Assembly (NCBI GenBank): GCA_032691205.1
Contig: GCA_032691205.1_4541.1
Direction: 5' to 3' (one strand)
DNA: 64,000 nt
From: a phage
The number at the start of each line of letters is the position of its first letter. The stretch's first letter is position 1. Position numbers and translations under genes: made by a program. Below the pieces are notes generated by a model. It saw only the letters and a list, made by a program, of their open reading frames with translations. It did no database searches and was not told the DNA's origin. This document shows positions 45,929 to 50,292 of the stretch, in pieces.

Positions 45929-46723
45929 TTGAGCAAGTTGAACACACTTGATCAATATTACACTAACCCCGCTTATGCGGGGTTCTTATGTGATAAGATC
46001 AAAGAAATTTTTGGAGAGGAAGCTAACTACGTAGAACCATCTGCGGGAGAAGGAGCTTTCTCTTCTTGTTTTAAAAACATAACTTCTTTTGATATTGACC
46101 CTAAGTTTGAAGATTGTATTGAGGCAGATTTTTTAGCTCAATCTGTTGAGTCTGTTGGTAGTGTAACTGCTTTTGTCGGTAATCCTCCGTTTGGAAAAAA
46201 TGCTAGTCTTGCCATTAAGTTCTTTAACCATTGTGCTGAAATGTTGGATAACGAAGGTGGTATTTGTTTTATCTTGCCTCGCACATTTCAAAAAATCTTT
46301 TTTGCACACAAACTAAATCCCCACATGCATCTTCTTTACGAAGAAGAATGTCCAAAAGGATCTTTTATTCTTCATGGAGAACCTTGGGATGTTCCTTGTG
46401 TATTCCAGATATGGATTAAACGCAACGAGAAGCGTTCTCCCGTTGTTTTAGGAGAGAATCGACTATTCGTATTAGGTAACAGTAAAGACTACGATATAGC
46501 CGTTAGGAGAGCGGGAGCAAGTGCAGGTAAAGTGTTATCAGAAGAAGATTCTTTATCTGAAGCATCTACCTATTTTTTAAAAGCCTTGACTTCTAATCTT
46601 AAAACGCGTATCATTGAGGCTTACCCGTTACTTAAAGCTGAAGCTAGTAAAACTGCGGGAGTAAGAAGTTTAAGTTTAAAAGAACTTCAGTGGGTTCTGG
46701 AGAACATTAGAAAGGAGGAATAG
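45929..46723 (+). CDS. DNA N6-adenine methyltransferase
   Basis: TTG start with RBS AAGGAGG; motif I VEPSAGEGAF, motif IV FVGNPPFG. Confidence 0.65.
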   Translation: MSKLNTLDQYYTNPAYAGFLCDKIKEIFGEEANYVEPSAGEGAFSSCFKNITSFDIDPKFEDCIEADFLAQSVESVGSVTAFVGNPPFGKNASLAIKFFNHCAEMLDNEGGICFILPRTFQKIFFAHKLNPHMHLLYEEECPKGSFILHGEPWDVPCVFQIWIKRNEKRSPVVLGENRLFVLGNSKDYDIAVRRAGASAGKVLSEEDSLSEASTYFLKALTSNLKTRIIEAYPLLKAEASKTAGVRSLSLKELQWVLENIRKEE

Positions 46724-49700
46724 TGAGTAAGTTTACATGGGATATTGAAGCAAACGGATTGTTGAATAATGACACTATTGATTATTTAGCTAGTCCTTAT
46801 CGTCTCAAAGACACATTTCAAATGCACTGTATTGTCTTAGAGAACCATGAAACAGGAGAAATAGTAGCTTTCCACGATGGCCCTAAATACATCTTTGATG
46901 GGCGTCCTTATGAAGAGTCAGATGGTAAATACACATATGTTCTTAAAGAGTATGTGGCGCAAGATTACACGCATTTTCAACTAAAAGATTTCCCAGACTT
47001 TATTAATCATGAAGGTTATTTTAAAGACAAGCCTGAATATCTGGTTGAAATGGCTGTGGCTCACAACGGTATCAACTACGACTGGTTGGCTACAAAACTG
47101 TTTTATGGATTAGATTACAGTGTTAAATATAATACGTGGGGCAAAAATAAGGTAAAACTTATTGACTCCTTGATTTTGAGTAAAGTGTTAAACCCAGATC
47201 GAAAGATTGAGGGCAAATCAGGACATAGCTTGGCAGCACTTTCTCGAAAGGCAGGGGGTGATGTAAAAATAGATTTCCGTAAAGAGATTCCAGAAGAAGA
47301 TCGATTTAAGACTTTTGCTGCTGATATGCTTTATTACTGTATCTATGACAACAAAGCCAATACGAGCGTATATAATTACCTTATGGAAGAGTGGGGTGAT
47401 TATGATAAATGGGAAGGTCCATTTGAACTTGAACAACGTGTAGCAGACATTATTACACGCCAGGAACACCGTGGGTTTGCTTTTAACATGAAGCAAGCAG
47501 AAGAGAACCTTGCTTTTTTGGATGCAGAAATGGAGCGTCTTCGTTTACTCGTTGAGCCTATTTTGCCACCTAAACCAGCAACAAAAGGTTATCTTAAGGC
47601 TTTTATTCCACCTAAGTTGCAAATTAAAAAGAACTTAGAGCCAACTAACCATATGATCAATTTTGCTAAGAAACATGATGGTCATTTGGAAGAGAGGGAT
47701 GGAGATTGGTGGTTAGTGATGTTGGGGAAAGAGTGGAAACTGCCAGTTGCAGCAGATGAGCCTTTGTGTGATCCTAATATCCCTGCAACATTGAACGATA
47801 CTACCCATATTAAAAACTGGCTTGTAGGATTAGGTTGGGTACCGTCTGAATATAAAGATAAAGACTTGACTCTTAAATCTGGCACCAAGATTAAAAAGAG
47901 CGAGGAAGAACTTCAGAAAGGTATTCGAGCTTACGTTGAGCAAACTCTATCTTCTAATTTTTGTCAGGATCGTTGTGATCATCTGGAGTGCACACCGGAA
48001 ACCTTGGAAAGGAAGATTCAAGAGCGTATAGCAAAAGGTAAAGGTCGCGGTCTTAAAGTATTGACTAACCCATGTTTTACCAAAGGTCAGGAAAAAGAAA
48101 TTTGTCCTAACCTGCAAGCTTTGGGTGAGAAATTTCCTTATGCTACACAGATTGTAGAATACTTAACGTATAAGCATCGTAGGAACTCTATTTTAGGCGG
48201 TGGTGCTGATTGGGAAGAAGACGAAGAAGATCAAGAATACAACAAAGGTTTCTTGGCAGCAGTTCGTGCAGATGGACGTATACCTACGCCAGCGGCTACA
48301 TGCGATGCAGCAACCTCTCGTATGAAGCATAGGTCTGTAGCTAATATTCCTCGTGTCACATCTTTGTTTGGATGGCAGATGCGTAACCTGTTTGGTGTAG
48401 AGGTTCCTAAATACTTCCAGATTGGTTATGACTTTGATTCATTAGAGGCGAAGATTGAGTCGCATTATACGTGGAGATATGATAATCCTGATCATGCTTA
48501 CTGTAATGCACTTCTGTTAGAAAAACCAAACGATGTGCATACTATGATGGCAAAACATATTACTGATATTATTGGACGTAAGTTTGAACGTGGTCCTGCT
48601 AAGAGCGTTAAATACGGTTGTGTACCTGTAGATAATACGGAAGTGTTAACAAGAACGGGTTGGAAGAAACGTAAAGATCTTTTTGTAGGGGATGAAGTTT
48701 TATCTTATAATACTCACACCGCTCTTTACGAATATACCCCTATTCTTAAGCTGTGGGACTATAACGATGCAGAAGTTGTCTCTCTCGGTAACAAGTGGTT
48801 CAAAGTAGAAGTTACTAACGATCATATGTGGATTAACGCACAGAGAAAAACTATGCGATCAGATGGTAACAATGTTAAGTATATGCAAGTGGAGCGTAGA
48901 TCTACAGAGGATTTAAACTCGGAGTCAAACATAATTGCAGCAGGGCGATCTGGTGTGGTGTCTACTCTAACAGTGGAAGAAGGTCGTTTCTTAGGCTGGC
49001 TTCTTTCGGATGGCTACTATAAGTGGTCTGGCAAAGCCAGAAATAAAGTAATGGGTATTACAGTCACGGTAGATCAAGATGAGAAAAAATTCTTAGAAGA
49101 AGCACGTGAGGCTGTGGGAGATATCTTCACATTTGACGAGTATGTATCTGGAACGATGCATTCATTACGTCCTAATAAGAGTCAGTTTAGGGAATTTTTG
49201 ACTAAATGTGGCGTTGAAGTGGGTCAAAATAAGCACGAAGTGGACTGGTCTACATTAATTGCTAATCAAGGTCAAGCTGTGTTGGAAGCATTCTTAGAGG
49301 CATTCTGGATGGCAGATGGTCATAAGCGTCCAAACGGCAGTTTTGTTATCCGTCAAAAGAAAGGTAAGATTAGCGACGCTGTTTCTTTGGCTATCAATAT
49401 GACAGGTAATATTGCGTATGGTTCTGTTCAAAAAGATGGCATGTTAACGTTGGCAATCAATAACGGACAAACTATTTCAGGACAGAGGTTGACAAAAGCT
49501 TTTTCACGAGTAACAGATGTATTCTGTATCTCAACCAAGAATGAATCTTTTGTTATGCGTCAGAATGGTTTTATCACGTTGACAGGTAACTGCACGTACG
49601 GCGCTCAAGCAGACAAGGTTGCTAAAACAATTGGTAGCGATAAATACACAGGTCAATTAGTGTTCGATGCTTTCTGGGAAGCTGCATTCCCACTGGCGCG

Positions 49701-50292
49701 TCTTAAAGAACGTTTAAACGATTTCTGGGTTAAGACTGGTAAACAGTATGTTTTGGGTATTGACGGTCGTAAGGTTCCTACTCGTTCTGCTCACGCGATT
49801 CTTAACTCTCTGTTCCAAAGTGGTGGGGTTATCTGTGCTAAACGTGCAATGGTTATTTATGACGATATGATCGAAGAAGAAGGACTAAGTGTTGACTTCT
49901 TTAAAGATGACTGGAAGAATAAAGACTTCGTGCAACAAATGATTGCATATCACGATGAAGCCCAGCTTGAAGTTTCTCGTAACCTTGTAGAATTTAAATG
50001 GTTTTCACCTGAATCATTAGGTTGGAAGAAAGTAGACGATCCTGAAGAACAAAAGAAAATTGATAAAGAATGCCTTGCTAAAGTCGAAGAATGGAAGCAT
50101 AATAAGGAAAAAGAGACAGGGCAAATTTGGGCTAACATTCATGAATCTCCCAAAGGTGGATGGTTTACAGCCTATAGTCGGGCAGGTGAACTTGCTGCCT
50201 TAGCTGTTACTAAGGCTGGAGAATTTTACAATCTTAATGTTCAGCTTACTGCCGGATATGATGTGGGTAATTCCTGGGCATCCTGTCATTGA
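46723..50292 (+). CDS. family A DNA polymerase with 3'-5' exonuclease, interrupted by an intein
   Basis: GTG start; N-terminus FTWDIEANGLL...HCIV resembles T7 gp5; motif B rebuilt as PAKSVKYG|CTYGAQADKVAKTIG after removing 48619-49590. Confidence 0.85.
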   Translation: MSKFTWDIEANGLLNNDTIDYLASPYRLKDTFQMHCIVLENHETGEIVAFHDGPKYIFDGRPYEESDGKYTYVLKEYVAQDYTHFQLKDFPDFINHEGYFKDKPEYLVEMAVAHNGINYDWLATKLFYGLDYSVKYNTWGKNKVKLIDSLILSKVLNPDRKIEGKSGHSLAALSRKAGGDVKIDFRKEIPEEDRFKTFAADMLYYCIYDNKANTSVYNYLMEEWGDYDKWEGPFELEQRVADIITRQEHRGFAFNMKQAEENLAFLDAEMERLRLLVEPILPPKPATKGYLKAFIPPKLQIKKNLEPTNHMINFAKKHDGHLEERDGDWWLVMLGKEWKLPVAADEPLCDPNIPATLNDTTHIKNWLVGLGWVPSEYKDKDLTLKSGTKIKKSEEELQKGIRAYVEQTLSSNFCQDRCDHLECTPETLERKIQERIAKGKGRGLKVLTNPCFTKGQEKEICPNLQALGEKFPYATQIVEYLTYKHRRNSILGGGADWEEDEEDQEYNKGFLAAVRADGRIPTPAATCDAATSRMKHRSVANIPRVTSLFGWQMRNLFGVEVPKYFQIGYDFDSLEAKIESHYTWRYDNPDHAYCNALLLEKPNDVHTMMAKHITDIIGRKFERGPAKSVKYGCVPVDNTEVLTRTGWKKRKDLFVGDEVLSYNTHTALYEYTPILKLWDYNDAEVVSLGNKWFKVEVTNDHMWINAQRKTMRSDGNNVKYMQVERRSTEDLNSESNIIAAGRSGVVSTLTVEEGRFLGWLLSDGYYKWSGKARNKVMGITVTVDQDEKKFLEEAREAVGDIFTFDEYVSGTMHSLRPNKSQFREFLTKCGVEVGQNKHEVDWSTLIANQGQAVLEAFLEAFWMADGHKRPNGSFVIRQKKGKISDAVSLAINMTGNIAYGSVQKDGMLTLAINNGQTISGQRLTKAFSRVTDVFCISTKNESFVMRQNGFITLTGNCTYGAQADKVAKTIGSDKYTGQLVFDAFWEAAFPLARLKERLNDFWVKTGKQYVLGIDGRKVPTRSAHAILNSLFQSGGVICAKRAMVIYDDMIEEEGLSVDFFKDDWKNKDFVQQMIAYHDEAQLEVSRNLVEFKWFSPESLGWKKVDDPEEQKKIDKECLAKVEEWKHNKEKETGQIWANIHESPKGGWFTAYSRAGELAALAVTKAGEFYNLNVQLTAGYDVGNSWASCH
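48619..49590 (+). mobile_element. intein with LAGLIDADG homing endonuclease, in the polymerase
   Basis: Starts CVPVDNTEVLTRTGWKK; LAGLIDADG motifs FLGWLLSDGYY and LEAFWMADGH; ends VMRQNGFITLTGN followed by +1 Cys. Confidence 0.75.

Follow-up and report, generated by a model that had tools for sequence, protein, structure and literature searches.

The penultimate His of an intein (position G:6) normally assists cyclisation of the terminal Asn (PMC2807308, PMC4031507), and functional inteins that lack this residue are documented (PMC5050341, PMC7891396). Both characterised inteins that end in Thr-Gly-Asn bear on the element described here, a 324-residue intein with the same ending that lies within the family-A DNA polymerase gene of a phage. 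The gene is carried on a stretch of DNA of 64,000 nucleotides (nt) (assembly GCA_032691205.1, contig GCA_032691205.1_4541.1), the whole of which is referred to below as the window. No description of this intein was found in the literature on Phapecoctavirus or rV5-like phages, or on family-A polymerases. The element is an unannotated addition to a known type of mobile intein; the finding is real but largely ordinary, and it changes no general principle. The reading preferred here, to which a probability of about 0.75 is assigned, is that it is a functional and bifunctional intein, which would splice by a class-1 pathway, efficiently and constitutively under ordinary infection, and whose LAGLIDADG domain would cut empty alleles of the polymerase gene.

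The first of the two characterised inteins, that of mycobacteriophage Bethlehem gp51 (RDF / metallophosphoesterase), splices to completion and is slowed dramatically by the substitution G316H (Kelley et al. 2016, PMC5050341). In common with the window intein, it possesses a LAGLIDADG domain, Cys1, a block-B TxxH-R motif, Cys at F:4 and a Thr-Gly-Asn ending (VWCLRV...IHLTGN|S), and it scores 56.8 bits against the splicing-domain profile of the family to which the window intein belongs. However, it occupies another host protein and site, carries Val rather than Trp at B:12 and Arg rather than Met at B:11, and is followed by Ser at +1; a full-length tblastn search did not recover it, the similarity being too low. 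The second, the naturally split AceL NrdHF intein (PDB 6ZGQ), ends in Thr144-Gly145-Asn146, splices in minutes and is inactivated by G145H (PMC7891396). Its Arg69, at B:11, contacts the carbonyl of the C-terminal scissile bond and makes up for the missing His; R69A slowed the intein, and a His introduced by G145H would clash with Arg69 (PMC7891396). AceL NrdHF shares with the window intein a Cys at F:4 (Cys124), the Thr-Gly-Asn ending and the absence of both the block-F and the penultimate His. It differs in being a proven class-3 intein with Ala1, and hence no N-terminal nucleophile, in having Ser at B:7, Met at B:12 and Arg69 at B:11, and in being split and devoid of an endonuclease.

An intein in motif B of a phage family-A DNA polymerase

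The polymerase gene of the window (Table 1) shares 99% nucleotide identity with the 'DNA polymerase I' gene of the Escherichia phage ukendt and 98-99% with the polymerase genes of nieznany, nepoznato and AV126 (Phapecoctavirus, Stephanstirmvirinae), and is the family-A DNA polymerase of a Phapecoctavirus, a phage of E. coli. It differs from the ukendt gene at 37 positions, and the codon at 49342-49344 specifies Phe where all nine database copies of the intein (99.7% identity) have Leu; because of these differences, the window phage is identical to no record in the collection.

Most relatives, including the type phage phAPEC8, align with the window gene in two pieces that together amount to 2594-2598 nt. 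The intein-less phAPEC8 orthologue measures 2598 nt over the entire gene, exactly 972 nt less than the 3570 nt of the window gene, and the gap in the protein alignment corresponds to Cys633-Asn956 of the window protein, that is, to nt 48619-49590. Without the intein the sequence is KSVKYG|ITYGAQADKVAKTIG, and with it KSVKYG-(324 residues)-CTYGAQADKVAKTIG. Across the site, phAPEC8 encodes KSVKYG|ITYGAQ, its empty target site being AAATCTGTTAAGTATGGT|ATTACCTATGGTGCACAAGCC, and the replacement of Ile by Cys at +1 is the sole host change between empty and occupied alleles. The original prediction, made from the window alone, had placed an intein with a penultimate Gly at 48619-49590, and comparison with these intein-less alleles reproduces its coordinates and both junctions exactly. 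Thr322-Gly323-Asn324 is followed directly by Cys+1, and re-inspection revealed no His at or beside the boundary.

The same prediction located the insertion in polymerase motif B and held that excision would restore a T7-like sequence, on both of which points the alignment agrees. The spliced product matches T7 gp5 in a phmmer search (E=1.5e-20), with ERGPAKSVKYG|CTYGA opposite TRDNAKTFIYG|FLYGA, so that the insertion falls between the equivalents of T7 gp5 G527 and F528, in the O-helix (motif B), between Tyr526 and Tyr530. The O-helix motif R-x-x-x-K-x-x-x-Y-G-x-x-Y-G is present and aligned to T7 gp5 R518/K522/Y526/Y530. In the empty allele the Pfam DNA_pol_A domain (PF00476) spans the site unbroken (51 bits, profile positions 90-345), whilst in the precursor it ends at the insertion with a sub-threshold score of 30.9 bits.

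Two other interpretations of the insert were rejected. With boundaries shifted by one residue, or with Thr taken as +1, the empty allele KSVKYGITYG is not recovered. Neither a group I intron nor a gene fusion fits the uninterrupted frame and the HINT fold of the insert.

The polymerases of ukendt, nieznany, nepoznato, AV126 and phiWec187, like that of the window, are deposited as 'DNA polymerase I' or 'hypothetical protein'; they are really intein precursors, and their junctions are now defined.

Domain architecture of the insert

The insert is predicted to consist of a HINT splicing domain split by a two-motif LAGLIDADG homing endonuclease domain. Modelled by AlphaFold2 together with short exteins, the intein received a predicted local distance difference test (pLDDT) score of 82 and a predicted template modelling (pTM) score of 0.83. 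When submitted to Foldseek, the model matched the inteins TliVMA (E=6e-15), PhoVMA, PI-SceI, PI-PfuI and PI-PkoII, with E-values from 6e-15 to 4e-8, and its central domain matched the homing endonuclease I-DmoI with a probability of 1.0 and a template modelling (TM) score of about 0.55-0.59 (target-normalised). The archaeal and yeast LAGLIDADG inteins PI-SceI, TliVMA and PI-PfuI thus resemble the window intein in two-domain architecture and fold (Foldseek E 6e-15 to 1e-9, TM 0.55-0.65). Nevertheless, they share only 9-15% sequence identity with it, and possess canonical His-Asn termini and Asp at F:4.

At the level of sequence, a single-sequence phmmer search of the PDB with the insert returned the endonuclease of PI-PkoII as its sole match, over residues 122-281, a region that spans both of the LAGLIDADG motifs that had been predicted. 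Of the catalytic positions, that of Asp131 is acidic (Asp or Glu) in 128 of the 129 family members without a gap there, and that of Asp233 in 156 of 158 sequences. The splicing-domain profile of the family, in turn, matches mini-inteins and hedgehog Hint domains.

Table 1. Features of the polymerase locus in the window
Feature	Coordinates	Strand	Remarks
Family-A (T7-like) DNA polymerase precursor gene	46723..50292	+	3570-nt open reading frame, 1189 amino acids (aa) including the intein
N-extein, 632 aa, ending ...RGPAKSVKYG	46723..48618	+	Exonuclease domain, motif A, first half of motif B
Transferred cassette: intein with 228 base pairs (bp) of upstream and approximately 20 bp of downstream co-converted extein flank	48391..49610	+	Identity between the window and phiWec187
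Unoccupied sibling-intein site (..ESHY|TWRY..)	48463..48474, between 48468 and 48469	+	Comparison with phi92
Intein, 324 aa, Cys1...Thr322-Gly323-Asn324	48619..49590	+	Exactly the segment absent from phAPEC8; modelled fold; family membership
Splicing block A (CVPVDNTEVLTRTGW)	48619..48663	+	Cys1 at 48619-48621; Cys in 150/150 ungapped family members
Splicing block B (FKVEVTNDHMWINA)	48799..48840	+	Thr66 (B:7), Asn, Asp, His69 (B:10), Met70 (B:11), Trp71 (B:12)
First LAGLIDADG motif (GRFLGWLLSDGYY, GRFLGWLLSDGYYKW)	48982..49026	+	Catalytic Asp131 at 49009-49011; PI-PkoII alignment
Second LAGLIDADG motif (LEAFLEAFWMADGHK, VLEAFLEAFWMADGHK)	49279..49326	+	Catalytic Asp233 at 49315-49317; PI-PkoII alignment, weak Pfam LAGLIDADG_3 match
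Splicing block F (TDVFCISTKNESFVMRQ)	49513..49563	+	Cys303 (F:4) at 49525-49527; block-F His absent (Ser310)
Splicing block G (NGFITLTGN|C)	49564..49593	+	Thr322 (G:5), Gly323 (G:6), Asn324 (G:7), Cys+1 at 49591-49593
C-extein, 233 aa plus stop, starting CTYGAQADKVAKTIG	49591..50292	+	Second half of motif B, motif C

A phage intein family with a Gly-Asn terminus

The family of the window intein was exposed by an exhaustive search over 1.84 billion cluster representatives, which returned 1888 relatives at E<=1e-3, of which 646 reach E<=1e-10 (counted as cluster representatives). A word-indexed homologue search that used an alignment of the splicing domain alone gave no matches. The family alignment comprises 157 proteins, 150 from the listing of the exhaustive search and seven from a word-indexed search. 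These representatives are at most 50% identical to one another and mostly 25-56% identical to the query, rising to 72% in one case (P0001). Most occupy motif B of PolA, either at the site used in the window or one to three residues upstream of it.

The residues by which an intein is recognised, Cys1, Thr66-x-x-His69, Asn324 and Cys+1 in the window copy, are present in more than 95% of the 157 relatives. Position 1 is Cys in every ungapped member (150/150), B:7 is Thr and B:10 His in 152/157 each, B:12 is Trp and F:4 Cys in 154/157 each, and G:5 is Thr in 151/157. At the C-terminus, Gly at G:6 and Asn at G:7 are each found in 153/157, followed at +1 by Cys (75), Thr (41) or Ser (39). Position B:11 is Arg in 135/157 and Lys in 12/157, Met being confined to the window intein and one other member. 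Both Gly at G:6 and Arg at B:11 are therefore almost invariant, and the sole member with His at G:6 (P0137) keeps its B:11 Arg. Gly has probably been retained in the family because the B:11 Arg or Lys (147/157) follows the logic established for AceL NrdHF. In four free-standing homologues, Cys1, the block-B Thr and His, Cys F:4 and Gly-Asn have been lost together whilst Trp B:12 is kept, and this joint loss indicates that the lost residues constitute the splicing, or catalytic, set.

Judged by its conservation, the Gly-Asn ending appears as the normal signature of a large, mostly phage-borne intein family centred on PolA motif B, and is to be read as a family hallmark rather than as a lesion.

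Proposed splicing pathway

In the proposed pathway, translation would give a 1189-aa polymerase precursor whose O-helix is broken by the 324 intein residues. A class-1 pathway is most likely. Cys1, held by Thr66 and His69 of block B, would undergo an N-S acyl shift, and Cys+1 would then attack the resulting thioester to form a branched intermediate. Cyclisation of Asn324 would release the intein, and a final S-N shift would yield an 865-aa polymerase that differs from the products of intein-less alleles solely by the change of Ile to Cys at the junction. The active site is a family-specific variant, with Cys303 in place of the usual Asp at F:4 and with Thr322 (G:5) probably hydrogen-bonded to His69, as in class-3 inteins. 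Gly323 is the normal penultimate residue, a His at this position being unneeded and, in the two characterised inteins with the same ending, harmful; for this reason, splicing is expected to be efficient and constitutive.

Several observations weigh against this reading. Standard profile models barely detect the insert and give no help in classifying it: Pfam Hint gives E=0.09 and LAGLIDADG_3 a sub-threshold E=0.0026, and NCBIfam intein_Cterm scores 12.4 bits against a cut-off of 15.6 bits. Moreover, Cys F:4, Trp B:12 and Thr G:5 together make up the class-3 signature, so that Cys303 might conceivably act as a nucleophile. The inteins of the window, P0001 and P0002 also depart from their family in carrying Met, Asn and Glu, respectively, rather than Arg or Lys at B:11 (Met70, 48826-48828, in the window), and in the same three the position of the block-F His is taken by Ser or Thr (Ser310 in the window). 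None of the three residues known to help Asn to cyclise (G:6 His, block-F His and B:11 Arg/Lys) is thus present in this sub-lineage, and C-terminal cleavage in the window copy could therefore be somewhat slower than is the norm in typical family members. Candidates for replacement helpers are the near-invariant Arg314 and Gln315 of a VMRQ motif, or Arg76. Because it lacks every known helper and yet supports a lytic phage, this copy could bring to light some additional means of compensation.

Class 1 or class 3

Class-3 inteins are defined by the triplet Trp(B:12)-Cys(F:4)-Thr(G:5), the Cys of which is the initiating nucleophile (PMC2807308), and they possess no nucleophilic residue 1 and generally no Thr at B:7 (PMC2807308, PMC6195587). 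The complete triplet is present in the window intein as Trp71, Cys303 and Thr322, these positions being assigned via the block alignment and the 21-residue spacing from Cys to Asn (PMC2807308, PMC5222942). The interval from Cys303 to Asn324 equals that of the pairs C320/N341 of MP-Be, C118/N139 of Msm DnaB-1 and C124/N145 of Mle DnaB (PMC2807308, PMC5222942). The class-3 inteins (the prototype MP-Be, named 'DnaB' but in fact in TerL, and Msm and Mch DnaB-1) thus share with the window intein all three triplet residues, their spacing and an association with phages. They differ from it in their non-nucleophilic residue 1, in the usual absence of Thr B:7 and in normally keeping the penultimate His (THN).

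These similarities suggest a class-3 or hybrid mechanism, in which Cys303 would attack the N-terminal junction, or take the acyl group from Cys1, to form a branched thioester at block F before transfer to Cys+1, and the family would be a naturally occurring intermediate of the two classes. The triplet occurs in more than 95% of the family, structures place F:4 between both junctions (PMC6195587), and Cys F:4 is among the residues lost in the free-standing derivatives. Such a mechanism is nonetheless unlikely. The defining absence of a nucleophile at residue 1 is contradicted by a Cys1 that is invariant in the family, and Thr B:7 is nearly so; both are relaxed in true class-3 inteins (PMC2807308, PMC6195587). 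Conversely, the combination that characterises class 1, Cys1 with the block-B Thr66/His69, is conserved family-wide. The usual class-1 helpers, Asp F:4, block-F His and G:6 His, are replaced by Cys303, Ser310 and Gly323, but these helpers are typical of the class and do not define it.

Profile comparisons bring the family no nearer to class 3. Against the PDB, the family profile matched the class-1 inteins Spl DnaX (1.4e-7) and NrdJ-1 (1.2e-6), and the class-3 inteins AceL NrdHF (1.9e-7, one of the two best matches), Msm DnaB-1 (0.064) and Mch DnaB1 (0.46), a result that shows no preference and does not discriminate between the classes. MP-Be, extracted from Bethlehem TerL, matched the profile weakly, with 23 bits over blocks A-B only, in contrast to the 55-75 bits of relatives that bear Cys1. 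Bethlehem gp51, one of these relatives, is treated as class 1 by Kelley et al. (PMC5050341), and class-1 inteins that bear Cys at F:4 lie, according to the literature, outside the monophyletic class-3 clade (PMC3196547). The window intein is therefore assigned to the class-1 type, with an accessory constellation that resembles class 3.

It is also conceivable, although improbable, that Cys303 serves as a second, obligatory acyl carrier in a relay from Cys1 to Cys F:4 to +1, and that the family is a living intermediate from which class 3 arose through loss of Cys1. If true, such a relay would settle the dispute between a divergent phage origin and a convergent origin of class 3. The divergent phage origin was reportedly put forward by Tori and Perler in 2011. 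Beyer et al. (2020) instead propose a convergent origin and regard conversion of class 1 to class 3 as improbable (PMC7664689), and the class question is of some interest because, as against that view, both signatures coexist stably in this family. With class-1 and class-3 signatures side by side, the family provides a natural system in which to study the role of Cys F:4 alongside Cys1.

Expected rate and possible regulation of splicing

The original prediction went on to suggest that the penultimate Gly, which in other inteins slows or alters C-terminal cleavage, may make splicing conditional; on such a reading, weakened cyclisation of Asn324 would act as a brake or switch on polymerase maturation. 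The customary role of the penultimate His lends this idea some force, as does the fact that the window copy has Ser310 in place of the block-F His and Met70 in place of the B:11 Arg/Lys, the compensating position in AceL NrdHF, where R69A slowed splicing (PMC7891396). However, Gly occupies G:6 in almost all of the family (153/157), and its replacement by His is deleterious in both characterised Thr-Gly-Asn inteins (PMC5050341, PMC7891396). Furthermore, nine sequenced phages carry the intein in their sole replicative polymerase; these lytic phages depend on the precursor to replicate, and several were obtained from plaques that they formed on E. coli K-12 MG1655. Recent spread has, in addition, brought this intein into two genera. 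This part of the original prediction is therefore unsupported, and slow or conditional splicing is judged distinctly unlikely.

A second form of conditionality would depend on redox state or zinc, a disulfide or zinc ion linking Cys1, Cys303 and Cys+1 and pausing polymerase maturation under oxidative stress. Three cysteines do converge on one active site in the window intein. In Msm DnaB-1 the catalytic Cys F:4 forms a reversible inhibitory disulfide (PMC6195587), and disulfide-bonded precursor conformers were observed with the G316H construct of Bethlehem gp51 (PMC5050341). The argument proceeds by analogy alone, nothing in the sequence being specific to a redox switch; half of the family has Ser or Thr at +1, so that a Cys303-Cys+1 pair is not conserved, and the E. 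coli cytoplasm is reducing. Redox control is accordingly considered very unlikely. That the insert is decayed and does not splice, being tolerated by the polymerase or bypassed via another polymerase, is hardly credible: although profile libraries scarcely recognise it, every catalytic position is intact and agrees with the family consensus, its 324 residues break the O-helix between the equivalents of T7 Y526 and Y530 in phages that are viable, and the presence of a near-identical element in two genera leaves no time for decay.

Cassette transfer and probable homing

Between 48391 and 49610, the window is identical to the Justusliebigvirus phage phiWec187 except at 49342 and 49496, both of which lie inside the intein. 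Outside this cassette, in comparisons over 60-nt segments, the window is 95-100% identical to phAPEC8, apart from a mosaic patch, and phiWec187 is 95-100% identical to phi92, whereas identity between the window and phiWec187 is only 55-85%. Inside it, each phage departs from its own genus, the identity of the window to phAPEC8 falling to 55-83%. The Cys+1 codon lies within the co-converted downstream flank. Full (100%) identity in the upstream flank is limited to the 12 intein-bearing records, from nine phage isolates; beyond these the best match is at 80%, and the linkage of flank and intein is perfect (12/12 records). Distribution of the intein is patchy, extending to 12 of the 128 matching polymerase records.

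Judged from these identities, the element has moved recently between two phage genera, and the cassette is the footprint that would be expected of endonuclease-initiated gene conversion from an unsampled donor lineage. The LAGLIDADG domain, in which both catalytic Asp residues are intact, would cut intein-less polymerase alleles during co-infection, and repair from an intein-bearing copy would bring in both the intein and adjoining extein DNA, with the Cys+1 codon that it requires. The locus thus offers an unusually clean natural record of homing, with defined cassette limits, a strongly asymmetric co-conversion tract (228 bp as against about 20 bp) and the apparent displacement of a sibling intein.

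The patch noted above, upstream of the cassette at 48241-48309, is about 80-83% identical to phAPEC8 in a gene that is otherwise 97-100% identical; this small tract of mosaicism or recombination is distinct from the intein cassette and has no connection with it. Four unannotated 'Campylobacter phage' records with C. jejuni as host (MG065639, MG065645, MG065656 and MG065689) are essentially identical at this locus, intein included, to the E. coli phage phiWec187, and their names or hosts look doubtful.

A sibling intein upstream

A second intein of the same family, of 246 aa, is found in phi92 (gp159; L004, 3001-3738) and in about 30 other Stephanstirmvirinae, inserted after motif A at ESHY^CWRY, a site that lies 150 bp upstream of the intein in the window gene and is unoccupied there (Table 1). 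This phi92-type intein, which occurs in Justusliebigvirus and some Phapecoctavirus phages, resides in the same gene as the window intein, is 33% identical to it and exhibits C1, TADHRW, VWCPQT and ITITGN|C. It differs in its insertion point, its length and its different, smaller endonuclease region. In the annotation of phage SD2, the gene that bears it is described as an 'intein-containing DNA polymerase precursor'.

The sibling site falls within the co-conversion tract of the window intein. Here the window has Thr (ACG) where the intein-less phAPEC8 has Cys (TGT), and substitutions are dense around it. The phage phiWec187, otherwise near-identical to phi92, possesses the motif-B intein and lacks the motif-A intein, and none of the 60 records listed contains both. 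That the tract covers the sibling site, and that the two inteins never occur together among the records listed, suggests that one displaces the other; the homing of one element probably erases its sibling.

Other members of the family

A few family members reside in other large proteins, at sites of the form ...PFY|C...TGN|T[FW]xRKN[IL]P (for example P0089, P0092, P0105 and P0110) or ...SGGGYQ|C...TGN|CYWxLDD (P0070, P0083, P0095 and P0131). These sites, too, are conserved, and the family has therefore jumped between several host genes.

Within motif B, the Pseudomonas phage vB_PsyM_KIL1 (L005, 737-3844) carries a 33%-identical family intein (CLPVD...VTITGN|C) inserted three residues earlier than that of the window. 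Its DNA polymerase coding sequence is annotated as a two-piece join despite a continuous frame; apparently the intein was handled in annotation as an intron would be.

Free-standing homologues include P0005, P0006, P0087, P0139 and a protein of the Vibrio phage VnaP (L012; ON212104, 205-4544). The family-A polymerase of VnaP is split into several open reading frames, with one break in motif B at the insertion point used in the window (...KGITYG YCIA* / MYGAAAPKIA...); these breaks may be introns. Directly downstream of the motif-B break lies a free-standing intein homologue of 356 aa, composed of HINT and LAGLIDADG domains but without Cys1, the block-B Thr and His, Cys F:4 or the terminal Asn. 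This protein looks like an intein-derived, free-standing homing endonuclease, analogous to yeast HO.

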